From assembly GCF_988243305.1 (NCBI RefSeq), contig NZ_OZ547137.1: a stretch of 64,000 bases of DNA; one strand, 5' to 3'. Below the pieces are notes generated by a model. The model did no database searches. It saw only the letters and a list, made by a program, of their open reading frames with translations, and had not been told where the DNA came from. Positions within the stretch are counted from its first letter, which is position 1, and the number at the start of each line of letters is the position of its first letter. Positions 9,494-63,933 of this stretch are shown here, one piece after another. The stretch is from a plasmid. A program made the position numbers and the translations under genes.

Positions 9494-10705
9494 TCATATC
9501 TGTGTAAATAAAAAAGGCTCCGTTTTTGACCTATTAAATAAGTCCATATCAATTTTCCAATTCTTGTCTATAAGAACTGTTCCACCATAATTTTGAATAT
9601 TAATAAGAGGGGTATTCGGCGAAACAGAGAATTTCGATAATATGCTTCCATTAATAAGGGTGTTGTCATATTTGTGATTGTCACTCAACCATGAATAATC
9701 GGATTGAACAATGGAGATATCTTTTCTTCGAGATTCACCCTCAGGAAATAATCCCTCATAACATATATGAATACTCATTTTAATGTTGTTGAAATCCAGG
9801 ATGTCCTGCTCATTATATTTCTTTTTATAATATAGAAAAGGTGATGTCGATGGTTCTGGTGAGTTATAAAAACTTTTCTTCTCAAAAAAAGGTATCAATT
9901 TGCTTTTTTGGTGGAGAAGAAACTCTTCTTTATGCCAGAAAGCAGACACTACGTTATTAATGTCTTGATATCCATAAAGATTCATTAATATCCCATATTT
10001 ATAGTGGAATCGATTATCTTTTAATTGCTTTAAGAGATGTTTAGTTCTTTCCTTTATATAATCATTCTTGTAACCGAAAAAAACATTTTCTGAGAGGATA
10101 ACTAGATCAACCTTCTTATTTCTGACGAATTCATTGAGATCAGTATAAAAATTACCTCTGACACCTACTTTTTTAAAATAAAGGCCAACCTGTACAATCA
10201 CAATGTTCAGAGGGGGATGTGTTATATTAACCGGTGTTTTCCATATTAGCGGAAATAATAATAACATAAGAGAACGGAGAAAAAATGATATTTTTAGACT
10301 AAATGTAACTGCAGGAATAAGATTTAATATTAATAAATTTAAAACAGGAATATCTGTTCTTGGTAAGATGTCAGGAAAATCATAATATAAAACAATCAAT
10401 GGATTTAATGGTATAAACATCCCGAAGGCGGATAATGAGGTTAATGAAAGGGCATGTAGACATGCTCCAAGTACCCCATAAGAACTCAGGAAACCATATA
10501 TGACAAGGGTTACCATATTATAGCAGAGTAATCCAAATGAAAGGTATAAATTAGAACTGCCATAATATTCTAAAAAACCACTAGAAAAATACATCCCAGA
10601 GAAAATGATAGAGTATAAAAGAATAGTAAAAAAAAGACTCACTCGTCTTTTTCTTGCTGCGAGATAATAGGCAAAAAAATACAATAAGACAATAGCGAAC
10701 TTCAT
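9494..10705 (-). CDS. aatD: AatD, membrane-anchored Lnt-like N-acyltransferase (CN-hydrolase fold)
   Basis: N-terminal multi-TM region plus a C-terminal domain with an ICYEGLFPE motif like the Lnt active-site Cys; last gene of the aat cluster. Confidence 0.8.
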   Translation of the reverse strand: MKFAIVLLYFFAYYLAARKRRVSLFFTILLYSIIFSGMYFSSGFLEYYGSSNLYLSFGLLCYNMVTLVIYGFLSSYGVLGACLHALSLTSLSAFGMFIPLNPLIVLYYDFPDILPRTDIPVLNLLILNLIPAVTFSLKISFFLRSLMLLLFPLIWKTPVNITHPPLNIVIVQVGLYFKKVGVRGNFYTDLNEFVRNKKVDLVILSENVFFGYKNDYIKERTKHLLKQLKDNRFHYKYGILMNLYGYQDINNVVSAFWHKEEFLLHQKSKLIPFFEKKSFYNSPEPSTSPFLYYKKKYNEQDILDFNNIKMSIHICYEGLFPEGESRRKDISIVQSDYSWLSDNHKYDNTLINGSILSKFSVSPNTPLINIQNYGGTVLIDKNWKIDMDLFNRSKTEPFLFTQI

Positions 10706-10716
10706 AAACTGTAAGC

Positions 10717-56994: not shown

Positions 56995-58164
56995 ATGAAT
57001 CAGAAGTGGAAGACGTTAATTATTTCATTATTAACACCATCAAGTATTATATCAGGGATTGCGTTGATAGTTCTCTGGGGATATTTCAGTCGCCTGGGCC
57101 GACTAGATATTTTCTTTGATGTAATGAATATTAAAAGCATCTTGGTATTGGTTTGTTGTGCAACTATACTATCATTGGCTATGATAGTATTTATCTTTTT
57201 TATAACCTCTTTTTTTATACCCGTAGTTATTCCTCAGGATATAAATAATCTTCCTGCTTACAATAAGATTCAGGGTAATTTTTTATCTGTGATGATGTTA
57301 TCTGGCATGTTCCCCATGGCCTTTATATATGTGTTATACTGTGCATTTGATTTTGATCAGAATGTTAAAGATAACTCTGGCTGGTTATCTATTGCAAGTA
57401 TGGGTGTACTGATAGCTGTTATTTTAGCCATAGTAAATAAGAGGTATCTTGAATATGACTTATCGTTTAAAAACAATAGAATGAAACTGTTGAGACGTGT
57501 TCAGATCTATCTTGTCATTCCGTTGTCTATTGCTTTACTGGTGCATCTTCAGTTAATTCCTCTGGAGATAGTTTTTAGGAATATTGCAACTTCAGATAAG
57601 AGTGTTAATTTCAAAGTGATAGCCGAACTGGCTTTCATGTCATATTTTATCTTTCTTCTGACAATGCTTCCTGGAGTCATTTATCTGAAAATGAATCCAC
57701 AGCATAAATTTTCAAAAAGAATTAGCTATTCATTTATCGCATCCTTGATGTTATTATTAATAATATCGACTCAAATAACCGTGTTACCAGTGATTTTTAC
57801 CCATTCCGTTATTAAGCTATCAGGTATAAGTGACTTCAAAATACATAGCTACATTATTAAATCAAGTGAATATCCTGAAGAGTTTTTTTCCAATGCAGCA
57901 TGGGATAAAAAAAATATAAAACCGGGGGATTATTACTCTGTGCAGGCTGTTTCTATGTTTACGACAAACCAGTTTATTCTCCTTTGTCCTAAGGATATTA
58001 TAAAGTTTTATCGGGAAAGCTGGAAGTTCGAGTTGCTTAATGTAGACTTCGATATAAATACCAGGAAGAAACTCCAGGAAGAAGCTGCATATTGCGTACC
58101 AATTTCTGCAATATCTGTAAAACGATGGGATATGCCTCTTCAGGGCTCGAAACCCTCAAGTTAG
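56995..58164 (+). CDS. hypothetical multi-pass membrane protein (389 aa), AT-rich
   Basis: Multiple hydrophobic segments; good RBS (aggag) upstream of the ATG; no family recognised. Confidence 0.55.
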   Translation: MNQKWKTLIISLLTPSSIISGIALIVLWGYFSRLGRLDIFFDVMNIKSILVLVCCATILSLAMIVFIFFITSFFIPVVIPQDINNLPAYNKIQGNFLSVMMLSGMFPMAFIYVLYCAFDFDQNVKDNSGWLSIASMGVLIAVILAIVNKRYLEYDLSFKNNRMKLLRRVQIYLVIPLSIALLVHLQLIPLEIVFRNIATSDKSVNFKVIAELAFMSYFIFLLTMLPGVIYLKMNPQHKFSKRISYSFIASLMLLLIISTQITVLPVIFTHSVIKLSGISDFKIHSYIIKSSEYPEEFFSNAAWDKKNIKPGDYYSVQAVSMFTTNQFILLCPKDIIKFYRESWKFELLNVDFDINTRKKLQEEAAYCVPISAISVKRWDMPLQGSKPSS

Positions 58165-59318: not shown

Positions 59319-59916
59319 ATCCGATTAGTTGTTAATCATATTTAATCATAGTGATTACTTTCAGACGGAACAAGGCAAATAATGCGCGTCAGCGCATGTA
59401 AGGCGGCATACGGAGGTTACATGTAGCACAGGTGTAAAACCGCCGAAGCCCGGCGTAAGCCGGTACTGATTGATAGATTTCACCTTACCCTTTTCCATCC
59501 TGCTAAGCCACACCCGCTTTCAGCTATGAGAGAGCCTTTGTGCGCAGTCGGGGCGTATCTCCGCGTTAGCGGGCCGTGAGGGACGCTTACGAGCGTGTAT
59601 GAGAGACGTACAGTGGTTTCTTCTAGCTTTTATTTCCTCTCAGGTCCCGAATTGTCAACTTCTGAATCGTGGGGGCCCCTTTGGGGTGACGATTCAGTGG
59701 TTGACAACTGCACATAAAACACCCTGTGTGTGGGGTGATGGTTCACGTAGTGGTCCATCGCCCTGCCAGGGGTCAGTCGCCACTACACCATCACTTGAGA
59801 AAGAGAAGGGACTTGCTGTTATGTCAGTGAAACTTTGGTAAATTATCGTATCCTGTGGCAGGATGATGGTTTGTTACAGCATTGCAATTCATTAAAAAGG
59901 GGGCTTACGAAGAACA

Positions 59917-60675
59917 GTGGATATGATCGCAACTAAAACGCCTGCCATTGATAAAGCTGCCCGAATATTTCATTTTATTGCCGGGAAAGGCTCTGCCACC
60001 TACAGTGAAATTCACCAGAATGTCGGATTGCCTCAAAGCACCACCTCGGCCCTGCTTGCCAGCCTGACCACGCATGCCTTTCTGAGACAAAAAAATGGCC
60101 GGTATTATCTGGGGCTAATCTTTTACGAGCTTGGTAATAAAGCCATTCAGGATTTTGATTTTCGTGAACTGGCTGAAGAGTCACTCGTTTTTCTCCGTGA
60201 CCGGACCCGTCTTGCCTGCCATCTGGGCGTTCTGGATGGTTCCACCGGCATCTATCTGGCGAAAAAAGAAAGCCAGAATGCGATTATCGTTCGCAGCTGG
60301 ACGGGAAAACGACTTTCCCTGCACAGTTCCTCCCTTGGGAAAGTGTTGTTGGCCTGGCTTCCGGAAGACCACATTGATGCTCTTTTACCCACAGAACACC
60401 TTCCTGCGTTTACTGCCCGGACAATTACAACACGTAAAGCGTTGAAAGCTGAGCTGGAGGTGGTCCGCCTGCAGGGATGGGCGTTTGATAATCAGGAAGA
60501 TGTCGACGATGTCACCTGTATTGCCGCGCCGGTATTTAACAGTGATCAGGCCGTTGTTGCCGCAATAAGTATTTCCGGGGTTCGTTTTCAGATGCCTGAG
60601 GAAAAAATACCTGAGTATGCGAACGCGGTGATGAAAGCCGCTGGCATGATGTCTGAAAAGTTATGCGGTATATGA
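59917..60675 (+). CDS. IclR-family transcriptional regulator
   Basis: N-terminal HTH (ATYSEIHQNVGLPQSTTSALL), C-terminal effector domain; divergent from the transporter gene. Confidence 0.85.
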   Translation: MDMIATKTPAIDKAARIFHFIAGKGSATYSEIHQNVGLPQSTTSALLASLTTHAFLRQKNGRYYLGLIFYELGNKAIQDFDFRELAEESLVFLRDRTRLACHLGVLDGSTGIYLAKKESQNAIIVRSWTGKRLSLHSSSLGKVLLAWLPEDHIDALLPTEHLPAFTARTITTRKALKAELEVVRLQGWAFDNQEDVDDVTCIAAPVFNSDQAVVAAISISGVRFQMPEEKIPEYANAVMKAAGMMSEKLCGI

Positions 60676-60720
60676 CTGGTCCGCTCACAGGTCATGATAA
60701 CCCGTGAGCGGCGTTCGGCC

Positions 60721-61686
60721 TTACGTTGCTCTGACGCGGGAGGCTCCGTGTTTTGCCCACAACGCAGTGATCACCGGCACGACAATGGCGGTGATCACCA
60801 CACAGGATGCCACCAGAGTGGTGGCTGCCGGTGCGGCCTCAGCGAAGTCCGGCGCGATCTCGGCTACCAGCAACGGAGTGGCCACGGCAGCGCCAGCAGT
60901 ACTCGATGCGGCAATTCCAGCCGTGCCACGGCCCTTACCCAGCATGATATCCATGATTATCAGTGGTACGCCTGTGATAACAATGACTGCCAGAGCCATA
61001 AGAATACCCAGCAGTCCGGTGTCGATGATGACGCCAAGATTAATGGTATTCCCCAACGCAAATGCAAAGAATGGGATCAGACTTTTGGTGGCCCTGGAAA
61101 ACAATTCCCGAAGTTCGGGATCAAGATTACCCAGCAAAAAACCCACCAGAAAGGGGATCAGGACGCCGGCGAGGTGTTCAGGTTCGAACGTTGCCTGCCC
61201 GGCGGCCCCCAGAATAATCATCGTCATCAGGGGGCCGGACTCAAGCGAGATAAGTACAGAAGCACCGGCTTCTTCTTTTGTGCCGTACTCCTGCATCAGG
61301 GAAGCATAAAGCCCGGCATTGGTCATATCCATCGCCGCAACAATCGCCAGAACAGATAAACCGGCAAAGAAACCTGTTTTTACCATTCCCCCTTCCGGTA
61401 GGAGCTGGGCAAAAACAAAGGCACAGACCCAGGCAGTGGCGATTTTTGTGGCTACCAGTGTGCCAGACTTTTTGAGAACGGTCCCGGTTGCACTGATTTT
61501 AATGGAGGCGCCCATACAGAACAGCCAGACAGCGAGGATGGGGACCACGCCGGTGATCATGCCATTAGTAAATGAACCAAAGTATTTGCCGGTACCTGGC
61601 CAGAAGGTATGCAGTACCGCCCCCAGAAACAGGGGGACCAGCATCATTCCTCCCGGAATTTTTTCAACTGTTTTTTTGATATTCAT
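60721..61686 (-). CDS. KdgT-family 2-keto-3-deoxygluconate-type permease
   Basis: 321 aa polytopic membrane protein with KdgT-like profile. Confidence 0.75.
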
Positions 61687-61718
61687 TATCGTCCCTTTTT
61701 AATGTCAGATACGGCCAG

Positions 61719-62099
61719 TCAGAGCACCATGATGGCTTCAATTTCAATAACAGCCCCCTGCGGCAGGGCGGCGATACCCAACGTAGCCCTGGCGGGGTAC
61801 GGTGTCGAAAAGTATTCCGACATAATGGCGTTAAATCGCGGGAACATGTTCACGTCGGTCAGATAGGCATTCAGCTTCACAATATCCCTATCACTCCCTC
61901 CTGCGGCCTCTGCCACCGACAGCAAATTTTTAAACGCCTGACGGGCCTGTTCATCGAAATCTGTTGAGACCACTTGCATGGTATGCGGGTCAAAACCGAC
62001 CTGACCGGCGAGATAAATGGTTTCCCCGGCTTTCACCGCCTGAGATAATGCCCCACCGGGGGCAGGAGCCCCGGTGGTATAAATGATGTCTTTTTTCAT
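61719..62099 (-). CDS. RidA/YjgF-family enamine/imine deaminase
   Basis: 126 aa, MKKDIIYTTGAPAPGGALSQAVKAGETIYLAGQ... RidA signature. Confidence 0.85.
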   Translation of the reverse strand: MKKDIIYTTGAPAPGGALSQAVKAGETIYLAGQVGFDPHTMQVVSTDFDEQARQAFKNLLSVAEAAGGSDRDIVKLNAYLTDVNMFPRFNAIMSEYFSTPYPARATLGIAALPQGAVIEIEAIMVL

Positions 62100-62123
62100 G
62101 ATGTGCCTCCTGTCCTTTTGCGG

Positions 62124-63014
62124 TTACAGACCGAACAATTTGTCTAGGCAGTCTGCCTGGTCGGCTGTTAACTGGCCGTTATGATTCCGTGAGACCGGCG
62201 TCATGTAGCCATACTTTCTGGAAATGGCGGTTTTGATCGTACTGACAAAATCATCACCAATGGCATATATCCCGGAAAGTCGCCCAATTTCTTTGTGTAA
62301 TCCGGCGACTTCATTGAGGTCGCCGGCCCGATAGGCCCGCATAATTTGGGCAAAAAGCTCCGGCACCACATTATTCAGTCCGGAAAGAACTCCGGCGCCT
62401 CCGTTCATCAGATTGGGTACAAAGTACTCATCAAAACCGGCGAATACGGCAAAATCTTTTCTCAGCGGTGTGACCGCGTTGACGATGGCCCGGGTGTGAG
62501 ACGCACAGTCCACAGTATCTTTGATGCCAATAAACCGCGGGCAGCTTTCCGCCAGCATTCTGACAAGGTGAGCATCCACATCACATCCGGTTCTGGCCGG
62601 GAAGTTATAGATAAACCAGTCACCGGCAAGTTTACGGTCAAGACTGCGGAAATAGCTAAGTAACTGACGGGATGTCTGGGCGTAGTAATACTGTGGCAGT
62701 ACCATTACTGCGTCATAGCCACTGTCATAGGCGGCATCAGCCAGATAAAGCATGTCCTCTTCAACGGTAGATGAAATATGGGCAATCAAAGGGAGGTCAC
62801 TCATTTTCCGGGCTTCCAGGATGAGCATTGCCCGTTCGCGGACGCTCATTGTGGCAAATTCCCCGATGGTACCTGATAGCAGAATGCCGTTGATGCCGGA
62901 ATCAGAAAGGCGTGCCATATGTTTTTCCAGCCCCGTGAGGTCTATCTGACCGCTGTCATCCAGAGGAATGACGGAAGGGCAGACTGCCCCTGAAAACTTC
63001 ATTGTCTGATTCAT
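62124..63014 (-). CDS. DapA/NanA-family class I aldolase (dihydrodipicolinate synthase-like lyase)
   Basis: 296 aa with family-typical TIM-barrel motifs (GILLSGTIGEF...IGIKD). Confidence 0.8.
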   Translation of the reverse strand: MNQTMKFSGAVCPSVIPLDDSGQIDLTGLEKHMARLSDSGINGILLSGTIGEFATMSVRERAMLILEARKMSDLPLIAHISSTVEEDMLYLADAAYDSGYDAVMVLPQYYYAQTSRQLLSYFRSLDRKLAGDWFIYNFPARTGCDVDAHLVRMLAESCPRFIGIKDTVDCASHTRAIVNAVTPLRKDFAVFAGFDEYFVPNLMNGGAGVLSGLNNVVPELFAQIMRAYRAGDLNEVAGLHKEIGRLSGIYAIGDDFVSTIKTAISRKYGYMTPVSRNHNGQLTADQADCLDKLFGL

Positions 63015-63339
63015 ATTATTTGTTCCTTTTGCGTGGTATCAGCGTCATGCCTGCTGATACCCGCCCCGGCCTTTACGGAAGAAGGATGGATATCAGTAGT
63101 CCAAACACCAATATAGTGATTTAGTAATCACTATATTGGTGTTTGGACTGACTGGGAAATCATCTTTATAAGAACTGTGCGTGAGTTCAAGAATTCATTC
63201 GTGTCGTTCCGGTGAACTCATATTGACAGGTCAATTGGCAACTGCGTCAGGTTACCAAGGGAAGCGGTTGAGCGTCTTTATAGCGACGATCGGCACGCAA
63301 GGTCATCATAAATGCCAGGGCGGATGCTCTGCCGGATGG

Positions 63340-63933
63340 CGTTAGCAGGACATTTTTTTCAGCCAAGCGCGCTGCTGCGGCCATTGCGACGCCTGCATCA
63401 GCGGCAACCAGATCAACTGTCTGGAAGGCTCGGTGCCGACCATTCTCAACCGCGGCGGCTTCGCCAATAAGCTGCGTGCCGACTGGCAGTGGGTGATCGG
63501 CATCGGCGGCCTCGGCCATATCGCCATTAAGCTGCTGCGGGCGATGGGCGCCGATCGCGTAGTCAATAGCCGCGATCCTGAAGCCTTAAAAGTGCTGGCC
63601 GGGCAGTTTGACCTGAGCATCAACACCGTGGCGGTGGATCTTGACTGGCAGCCGTACTTCGAAGCCCTGTCCTAGGGCGGCAACTTCCACACCGTCGACG
63701 CGGTGATGAAGCCGTTCCCGGTACCGGCCTTTACCCTTATCGGCGACGACTGCAGCATCTCCGGCTCGGCGATCGGTAACCCATCCGAACTGCGCACGCT
63801 GAGGAAGTTCGCCGGACGCAGCAAAGTGGCTCCGACCACCGAGCTGTTCCCGATGTCGCAAATTAACGAAGCGTTGAAACACGTTCGCGAAGGCAAAGCC
63901 CGCTACCGCGCGGTGCTGAAAGCCGACTTATGA
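63340..63933 (+). pseudogene. YahK-like zinc-dependent alcohol dehydrogenase, C-terminal fragments only
   Basis: ORFs 63433..63675 and 63703..63933 have [15 protein letters not shown]...[11 protein letters not shown] and ...[31 protein letters not shown] in different frames. Confidence 0.65.

Follow-up and report, generated by a model that had tools for sequence, protein, structure and literature searches.

In the canonical route, 2-keto-3-deoxygluconate (KDG) is first phosphorylated by KdgK and then split by Eda; an aldolase of the dihydrodipicolinate synthase (DHDPS) family takes no part. YagE and YjhH, encoded in the clusters yagEFGH (in prophage CP4-6) and yjhIHGF, are enzymes of the DHDPS/NAL fold that are annotated as cleaving a keto-deoxy sugar acid without phosphorylation. 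In the non-phosphorylative "route 1" of L-fucose catabolism, L-2-keto-3-deoxyfuconate (L-KDF) is cleaved to pyruvate and L-lactaldehyde (PMC11199699, PMC6817895). Aldolases acting on L-KDF include FucH of Veillonella ratti (Watanabe 2020, as cited in PMC11199699) and FumF of Bifidobacterium (PMC6817895). This study concerns a four-gene cassette at positions 59917-63014 of a 64,000-nucleotide (nt) stretch of plasmid DNA (contig NZ_OZ547137.1 of RefSeq assembly GCF_988243305.1), and this whole stretch is referred to below as the window. The cassette encodes an IclR-family regulator, a DHDPS-family aldolase, a RidA-subfamily protein and a KdgT-family permease. Comparison with the systems above suggests that it is probably, though with considerable room for doubt, a self-regulated unit that moves horizontally and salvages a 2-keto-3-deoxy sugar acid, with L-KDF as the best candidate.

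The original prediction for this locus, made from the DNA letters, listed these four genes, and all four proved to be intact open reading frames (ORFs) with family matches (Pfam E-values of 3e-33 to 2e-109). The same four genes are annotated by RefSeq/PGAP on plasmids that are 99.8-100% identical to the window. Three of them lie on the minus strand in the order aldolase, ridA, kdgT, with 24 nt between the aldolase stop codon and ridA and 32 nt between ridA and kdgT. The iclR gene on the plus strand is convergent (tail-to-tail) with the 3' end of this operon across a 45-nt gap and is not divergent from it (Table 1). The permease matched PF03812 (E = 2.4e-109) and scored 494.7 bits over residues 1-312 of 321 against TIGR00793, above the equivalog cut-off of 453.8, and it is 71% identical to K-12 KdgT. 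Its family membership suggests that it would import a keto-deoxy acid by proton symport. Adjacency of KdgT and the aldolase was found in two independent arrangements, convergent in Enterobacteriaceae and co-directional in Gilliamella.

Evidence on the substrate came from the neighbourhoods of aldolase orthologues. A scan of species-representative genomes returned 416 relatives of the aldolase, and 80 loci were examined. In clusters of one type (type D; loci L094, L095, L060 and L046), orthologues 57-67% identical to the plasmid aldolase sit in an L-KDF-type context, whereas the plasmid copy has no such neighbours. Locus L094 (aldolase 67% identical) encodes an IclR regulator, the aldolase, FucO, a GD_AH-type dehydratase, a lactonase-like protein, L-fucose dehydrogenase, a RhaM-type mutarotase and FucP. 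The same set is found under an AraC regulator in Neisseria sp. (L095), an AldA-type dehydrogenase replaces FucO in Ignatzschineria (L060), and the Bilophila orthologue (L046) is accompanied by a dehydratase, a lactonase and L-fucose dehydrogenase. Scores in these clusters exceeded the model cut-offs for L-fucose dehydrogenase (401-409, cut-off 300), FucP (314-322, cut-off 280), FucO (708, cut-off 537) and the AldA-type dehydrogenase (814, cut-off 500), and a RhaM-family gene (PF05336) was called in L094 and L095. The best model for the lactonase was L-fucono-1,5-lactonase at 318-344 bits, which is under its cut-off of 400, and for the GD_AH dehydratase the assignment is to the family only. The gene set of the type D clusters is that of the published route 1 (PMC11199699, PMC6817895). 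Because the orthologues of this group belong to clusters for L-fucose oxidation, the plasmid aldolase is most likely of the L-KDF type and is predicted to give pyruvate and L-lactaldehyde.

The likeness to FucH and FumF lies in the enzyme class (class I aldolase), in the expected products, with L-lactaldehyde passing on to FucO or AldA, and in orthologues whose clusters hold mutarotase, L-fucose dehydrogenase, lactonase, dehydratase, FucP and FucO or AldA. However, the upstream enzymes are all missing from the plasmid cassette, which has KdgT and RidA instead, so its predicted starting point is an imported keto-deoxy acid and not L-fucose.

In type C loci, from Orbaceae and Budviciaceae, an orthologous IclR gene (57-63% identity) adjoins the aldolase. 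In several Gilliamella genomes, kdgT (77-78% identical to the plasmid KdgT) follows co-directionally 22-25 nt downstream of the aldolase, and next comes a lactaldehyde reductase scoring above the cut-off of the FucO equivalog model. Of 78 reference loci, 11 have a FucO equivalog directly 3' of the aldolase, as do L093 and L094. A variant of the type D clusters, in Citrobacter and Limnobaculum, has an enolase-superfamily dehydratase and an aldo-keto reductase. In type A loci of Enterobacteriaceae (Citrobacter, Kosakonia, Enterobacter and atypical Escherichia; L004 and L005 at 10001-10891, and those of L032-L091 that belong to this type), the order is yiiM-aldolase-kdgT-sodA, with the aldolase at 54-57% identity lying beside, and convergent with, the canonical chromosomal kdgT. 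E. coli K-12 has the yiiM-kdgT-sodA locus without the aldolase. A chromosomal orthologue in E. coli was considered and rejected: a megablast comparison of the locus of the E. coli-labelled protein P0084 (L004) with 5,426 complete E. coli genomes gave no match, and the arrangement is that of the four groups just named. The Erwiniaceae contexts (type B, recA ... aldolase ...) were set aside as housekeeping synteny that carries no functional information.

The aldolase itself matched PF00701 at E = 8.3e-48 (163 bits, cut-off 22.1) over residues 6-266 of the TIM-barrel. Its best relative in the PDB is YagE (137 bits for the sequence alone, 181 bits when a profile of the clade was used), and any DapA reached at most 140 bits. 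Identities are 30-33% to YagE and YjhH, 24-27% to E. coli DapA and 22-23% to NanA. Residues T49, Y110, Y136, K165 and R141 align with DapA T44, Y107, Y133, K161 and R138, and the Schiff-base K165 (in IGIKD), Y136, Y110 and the segment G48-T49-I50-G51-E52 (GTTGE in DapA) are invariant across 27 clade members. The alignment of R141 with DapA R138 is gap-free (YNFPARTG versus YNVPSRTG), whereas YagE, YjhH and NanA have leucine at this position. Arg141 is nevertheless not diagnostic of DapA, because it is invariant in the 27 clade members down to 54% identity, including orthologues embedded in L-fucose clusters. The lysine allosteric site of E. coli DapA consists of His53, His56, Asn80 and Glu84, and His53, His56 and Asn80 were not matched at the aligned positions of the aldolase. 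The DapA model TIGR00674 was the top NCBIfam match by score, but its 132.2 bits fall under the equivalog cut-off of 206.15.

The original prediction had asked whether the active-site residues match DapA proper, and the answer is divided. The fold, the Schiff-base lysine, the Thr/Tyr/Tyr triad and the entrance arginine equivalent to R138 are all present, but the score is 132 against 206 and the lysine site is not kept. The model score, the identity ranking, the allosteric site and the catabolic operon context together speak against DapA identity, and on these sequence comparisons the aldolase is judged not to be DapA. The broader proposal of uptake and aldol cleavage of a 2-keto-3-deoxy sugar acid was borne out by the KdgT equivalog match, by YagE as the nearest structure and by orthologues that lie beside KdgT or sugar-acid pathway genes. 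The yag and yjh clusters share with the cassette the fold of the aldolase, an IclR-family regulator (XynR, also named YagI, and YjhI), a dedicated transporter, horizontal acquisition and the annotated cleavage without phosphorylation. They differ in the distance of the aldolase (30-33%) and regulator (35%), in having leucine where the cassette clade has Arg141, and in encoding a dehydratase (YagF, YjhG), other transporters and no RidA.

The regulator has an HTH_IclR domain (PF09339, 1.9e-9) and an IclR_C effector domain (PF01614, 6.3e-49). It scored under every NCBIfam equivalog cut-off, with 144.3 bits against 275 for KdgR (NF011671). Its closest K-12 paralogue is YfaX (RhmR), from the L-rhamnonate operon, at 41% identity; XynR and YjhI are at 35% and KdgR at 34%. 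It is 67% identical to the IclR protein encoded directly upstream of the L094 L-fucose cluster. The cassette is like the KdgT/KdgR system in its permease and in the family of its regulator, but the regulator is not KdgR.

A perfect palindrome lies 84-135 nt upstream of the aldolase start, with the core TATAGTGA-N8-TCACTATA. This core (TATAnTGA-N8-TCAnTATA) occurs once in the window, with 0 occurrences expected by chance. Among 97 loci it was found only just upstream of aldolase genes (Gilliamella L016, L019, L022 and L026, L093 and the plasmid copies), and degenerate copies of the palindrome lie upstream of the aldolase in L002, L092, L094, L102 and L104. This pattern, in which the motif accompanies the aldolase from one family to another, suggests that the palindrome is probably the IclR operator. 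It is unlikely to act as an RNA hairpin or terminator: the half-sites are preserved in relatives while mismatches between the arms are uncompensated, and a protein operator is therefore favoured. An Rfam scan of 56.4-64 kb returned only sub-threshold miRNA-hairpin matches on the palindrome, which were judged spurious. The -10 element of a promoter candidate falls inside the palindrome; it is a consensus match that carries no evidence of function. A second motif, TGAACnnACGCACA (63176-63189), is common to five diverged RidA cassettes (the window, L002, L092, L102 and L104) in which the DNA around it is unalignable, and it is not present upstream of the Orbaceae orthologues.

Two minor observations concern the same region. 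The 12-nt operator centre AGTAATCACTAT (63123-63134) recurs exactly, inverted, at 59348-59359 in the promoter region of a ribbon-helix-helix antitoxin/RelE pair, which could be chance or cross-talk. In the 5' leader of the aldolase, a stem of 9 bp closed by a loop of 9 nt (GGTATCAGC...GCTGATACC) can be drawn at 63035-63061 on the minus strand (21-47 nt ahead of the start codon), and alignment showed that this stem is not present in the L002 leader.

Under the salvage explanation favoured here, the IclR protein would bind the palindrome, which overlaps the promoter candidate, and repress aldolase-ridA-kdgT until an effector arrives, probably the keto-deoxy acid itself. KdgT would bring the acid in, and the conserved catalytic residues suggest that the aldolase would form a Schiff base via Lys165 and cleave between C3 and C4 to give pyruvate and an aldehyde. 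With L-KDF (4S,5S), the best candidate substrate, the aldehyde would be L-lactaldehyde, of which the chromosomal FucO and AldA of the host could dispose. By stereochemical reasoning, KDG (4S,5R) and keto-deoxy-pentonates would be plausible co-substrates; because the C4 configuration is shared, a KdgT-coupled aldolase could accept both KDG and L-KDF. The substrate is most likely L-KDF or a 4S keto-deoxy acid such as KDG. RidA is conserved in the operon under selection, and its deaminase-type site is intact.

The four-gene order is retained at 73-82% aldolase identity in at least four separate genomic settings, and RidA-bearing cassettes were found in L092 (aldolase 82% identical to the window copy, adjoining a P4-type integrase), in L002 and L003 (79%) and in L102 and L103 (73%). 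Between the window and L092, synonymous divergence (dS) exceeds 1 and the ratio of nonsynonymous to synonymous divergence (dN/dS) is 0.09 for the aldolase, 0.105 for RidA, 0.02 for KdgT and 0.07 for IclR. This indicates that the four-gene unit is old and that RidA is under selection. In the metagenomic locus L104 (1204-2604), ridA is decayed and kdgT frameshifted, with the aldolase (85%) intact and IclR at 88%; the damage is either real pseudogenisation or an assembly error. Two further loci found through RidA (L096 and L097) proved to be assemblies of this plasmid region with many frameshifts and were set aside as uninformative.

Table 1. Features of the cassette and its upstream region (window coordinates).
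Feature	Position	Strand	Remarks
IclR-family regulator, 250 aa	59923..60675	+	PGAP start ATG 59923; ORF opens at GTG 59917
KdgT-family 2-keto-3-deoxy-acid:H+ symporter	60721..61686	-	operon gene 3; PF03812, TIGR00793
RidA-subfamily imine/enamine deaminase homologue	61719..62099	-	operon gene 2; TIGR00004
DHDPS/NAL-family class I aldolase	62124..63014	-	operon gene 1; PF00701; predicted L-2-keto-3-deoxyfuconate-type
Perfect inverted repeat, 24+24 nt, 4-nt centre	63098..63149		predicted IclR operator; core 63112-63135
Sigma-70-like promoter candidate TTCCCA-17-TATAGT	63130..63158	-	consensus scan, 9/12 positions match
Conserved motif TGAACTCACGCACA	63176..63189	-	about 26 nt upstream of the palindrome

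RidA scored 137.5 bits against the Rid detoxifying-hydrolase model TIGR00004 (cut-off 106.25) and keeps equivalents of Arg105 (an invariant Arg104, in a PARA motif) and Glu120 (Glu119), in which it is like RidA and TdcF, the 2-iminobutanoate/2-iminopropanoate deaminases. It differs from them in being only 39% identical to K-12 RidA, in having leucine (Leu18) at the position of Tyr17, and in the absence of an adjoining pyridoxal phosphate (PLP) dehydratase; tdcF lies in the tdc threonine-dehydratase operon. The leucine is found in all five cassette RidAs, whereas free-living relatives keep the tyrosine. In S. enterica RidA the Tyr17Ala change had little effect and the arginine, which binds the carboxylate of 2-imino/2-oxo acids, was essential (PMC4433059), so the leucine does not exclude membership of the RidA family. 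The nearest relatives outside the cassettes, at 58-61% identity, come from Neisseriales and Chromobacteriales. RidA was found within 8 kb of the aldolase in none of the 80 reference-genome loci, and it was therefore rejected as an ancestral partner of the aldolase; it accompanies the aldolase in the cassette lineage alone, where its gene invariably separates the aldolase gene from kdgT.

It had been proposed that RidA detoxifies reactive enamine/imine intermediates of the substrate, and this part of the original prediction was not supported. Keto-deoxy sugar acids contain no nitrogen, the Schiff-base/enamine intermediates of class I aldolases stay enzyme-bound, and the cassette has no PLP enzyme. 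The absence of RidA from the 80 reference loci also speaks against it.

The best surviving alternative to L-KDF salvage is classical KDG salvage, in which KDG would be imported and cleaved in a YagE-like, non-phosphorylative manner to pyruvate and D-glyceraldehyde, with no link to fucose. This would agree with a permease that passes the KdgT model, with the Enterobacteriaceae orthologue beside the canonical chromosomal kdgT and with the annotation of YagE, the nearest solved relative, as a KDG aldolase, and our own stereochemical reasoning makes KDG and L-KDF both 4S. However, wherever an extended context in the clade is informative, it is a cluster for L-fucose/6-deoxyhexose that encodes FucP, L-fucose dehydrogenase and either FucO or AldA, and gluconate or uronate genes were not found in those contexts. 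Additionally, the regulator is nearest to YfaX, which belongs to a 6-deoxy-sugar-acid system, and to the IclR of L094, and not to KdgR (34%, below the cut-off), and E. coli already has the KdgK/Eda route for KDG. Classical KDG salvage is thus regarded as unlikely, though not far-fetched.

A nitrogen-containing substrate, from which RidA would hydrolyse an imine to a 2-keto acid before aldolase cleavage, would give RidA an obvious role. Examples would be a 2-imino-3-deoxy acid made by a PLP-dependent 2-amino-2-deoxy-aldonate ammonia-lyase encoded elsewhere, or a cyclic imino acid of the kind handled by DHDPS-family deaminases such as pyrroline-4-hydroxy-2-carboxylate deaminase. RidA is under purifying selection in every intact cassette (73-100% aldolase identity), always in the aldolase-kdgT interval. 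The aldolase keeps the DapA-like Arg141, and DapA handles an amino-aldehyde with a carboxylate. The arginine kept in RidA (Arg104) is the one that binds the carboxylate of 2-imino/2-oxo acids (PMC4433059). However, neither a PLP enzyme nor an amino-acid oxidase or racemase is encoded in the cassette, its transporter belongs to the keto-deoxy-acid type, and no hydroxyproline or amino-sugar genes were found in any context. Arg141 is also invariant in the 80 orthologous reference loci, none of which has RidA. A substrate of this kind therefore seems rather improbable.

An extension of the L-KDF reading would give RidA a different role. EAEC (enteroaggregative E. coli) and sequence type 131 (ST131) strains might cross-feed by scavenging L-KDF, or a keto-deoxy acid related to it, from gut bacteria whose oxidation of mucin or milk L-fucose is non-phosphorylative, with the cassette-specific RidA (leucine for Tyr17, arginine kept) recruited for a non-deaminase job on the 2-keto acid. 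A candidate job would be to speed the opening of a furanosyl hemiketal to the acyclic keto form required by the aldolase, by analogy with NanQ, which serves NanA in the nan operon. This combination is speculative and is given a low probability.

It is quite improbable that the cassette has no function and is only what is left of a larger pathway, carried along by successful IncF plasmids without benefit to the host. The missing upstream fucose-oxidation genes, the pseudogenes and insertion sequence (IS) remnants that surround the cassette, the damaged L104 copy and truncated copies on some plasmids could all be read in this way. However, all four ORFs are intact in 221 complete E. coli genomes, purifying selection is strong over saturated synonymous divergence, the regulatory motifs are kept while flanking DNA has diverged beyond alignment, and the gene order recurs in the separate settings described above. 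A plasmid-borne DapA isozyme (4-hydroxy-tetrahydrodipicolinate synthase) for lysine or diaminopimelate is hardly credible: although the equivalents of T44, Y107, Y133, R138 and K161 are all present and the DapA model is the top NCBIfam match, that score is far under its cut-off, identity to YagE/YjhH is higher, the profile search places YagE over every DapA structure, the allosteric residues are not conserved, the clade contexts are catabolic and the gene shares an operon with a sugar-acid permease.

Several points weigh against L-KDF salvage itself. The cassette lineage (aldolase identity of at least 73%) is without the upstream fucose genes, and a shift in specificity may have taken place within it. 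The conservation of RidA and the invariance of Arg141 are not accounted for by a nitrogen-free substrate with a neutral tail. The likeness to FucH and FumF is drawn from enzyme class and gene set, not from sequence alignment, and the putative promoter and operator rest on pattern evidence only. A literature search found no functional work (enzyme, transport or expression) on the cassette or a close orthologue; the cassette appears in a figure legend and in gene lists naming kdgT, tdcF/ridA, yagE and yfaX on IncF plasmids.

Each component of the cassette belongs to a known family, and annotated copies of the whole are already present on hundreds of plasmids, which makes this an incremental finding. 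The combination of KdgT, aldolase and RidA is new among IclR-regulated keto-deoxy-acid aldolase operons. If the prediction is correct, about 4.5% of completely sequenced E. coli carry a plasmid route into an L-fucose-derived (or KDG-like) pool. This route is not found on E. coli chromosomes (no chromosomal orthologue in the 5,426 complete genomes), and its carriers include plasmids of the ST131 lineage and an EAEC virulence plasmid. It would then be a small colonisation trait that travels with resistance and virulence plasmids. The analysis also offers a predicted function for a widespread, uncharacterised DHDPS-family clade (Enterobacterales, Orbaceae, Bilophila, Neisseria), predicts an IclR operator and draws attention to a RidA under selection around which no nitrogen chemistry is apparent.

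The cassette matched 244 of the 5,426 complete E. coli genomes, 243 of them at 99% identity or more. Its places in these genomes are 248 on plasmids, almost always IncF, and 2 on chromosomes, and the plasmids include ST131 ones such as that of JJ1887. The claim that the window comes from a virulence plasmid was confirmed: positions 1-25000 match, at 99.6-99.7% identity, EAEC pAA plasmids that carry aatPABCD (dispersin export), aggR, aap and aar, and 39-64 kb matches IncFIA/FIB/FII plasmids. The window is thus an EAEC pAA-type virulence plasmid joined to an IncF backbone. The "yahK-like pseudogene" reported next to the cassette is a pseudogene (63367-63933), a C-terminal fragment of a zinc-binding dehydrogenase with the N-terminus missing and an internal stop, but its likeness to YahK amounts to only 32.5% identity with residues 180-342 of the K-12 protein. 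On sister plasmids the dehydrogenase pseudogene is followed by a ugp-like sugar ATP-binding cassette (ABC) transporter with a phosphodiesterase and, farther along, by a four-carbon acid-sugar kinase/PdxA/SLC13 cluster.

Orthologues with 57-63% identity to the plasmid gene, which is gammaproteobacterial, also occur beside Amidohydro_2 genes in Desulfovibrionaceae (Bilophila and Desulfovibrio, gut sulfite-reducing bacteria; L027-L030 and L046) and, in L046, beside dehydratase and L-fucose dehydrogenase genes; this suggests inter-phylum transfer of an L-fucose oxidation module.

On the other side of the cassette, the non-coding segment 59382-59605, between a RelE/ParE toxin-antitoxin module and iclR, is shared, with about 87% identity, by thousands of plasmids from Escherichia, Klebsiella, Salmonella and Shigella, on which it carries no annotation. 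Because only about 268 records, which bear the cassette, continue through 59916, its left junction is placed near 59.6 kb. An inverted repeat at 59652-59707, with 19-nt arms (89% complementary) and an 18-nt spacer, lies about 215 nt upstream of iclR. The segment 59649-59766 matches unrelated Salmonella plasmids at 91.5% identity and may for this reason be a small repeated element. Farther away, an ORF at 56995-58164 encodes a multi-pass membrane protein of 389 aa in an island of 30-37% GC with flanks of about 50% GC, and it is labelled only as a hypothetical protein on sister plasmids. The matching plasmid NZ_MN218686.1 (locus L101) has a series of annotated defence-like genes between ccdAB and the RepFIB rep gene, and homology places this series at about 42.5-54 kb of the window. 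It encodes an S-4TM pore-forming effector, a SIR2-family protein next to an ATP-binding protein, a DUF2971 protein and an abortive-infection protein.

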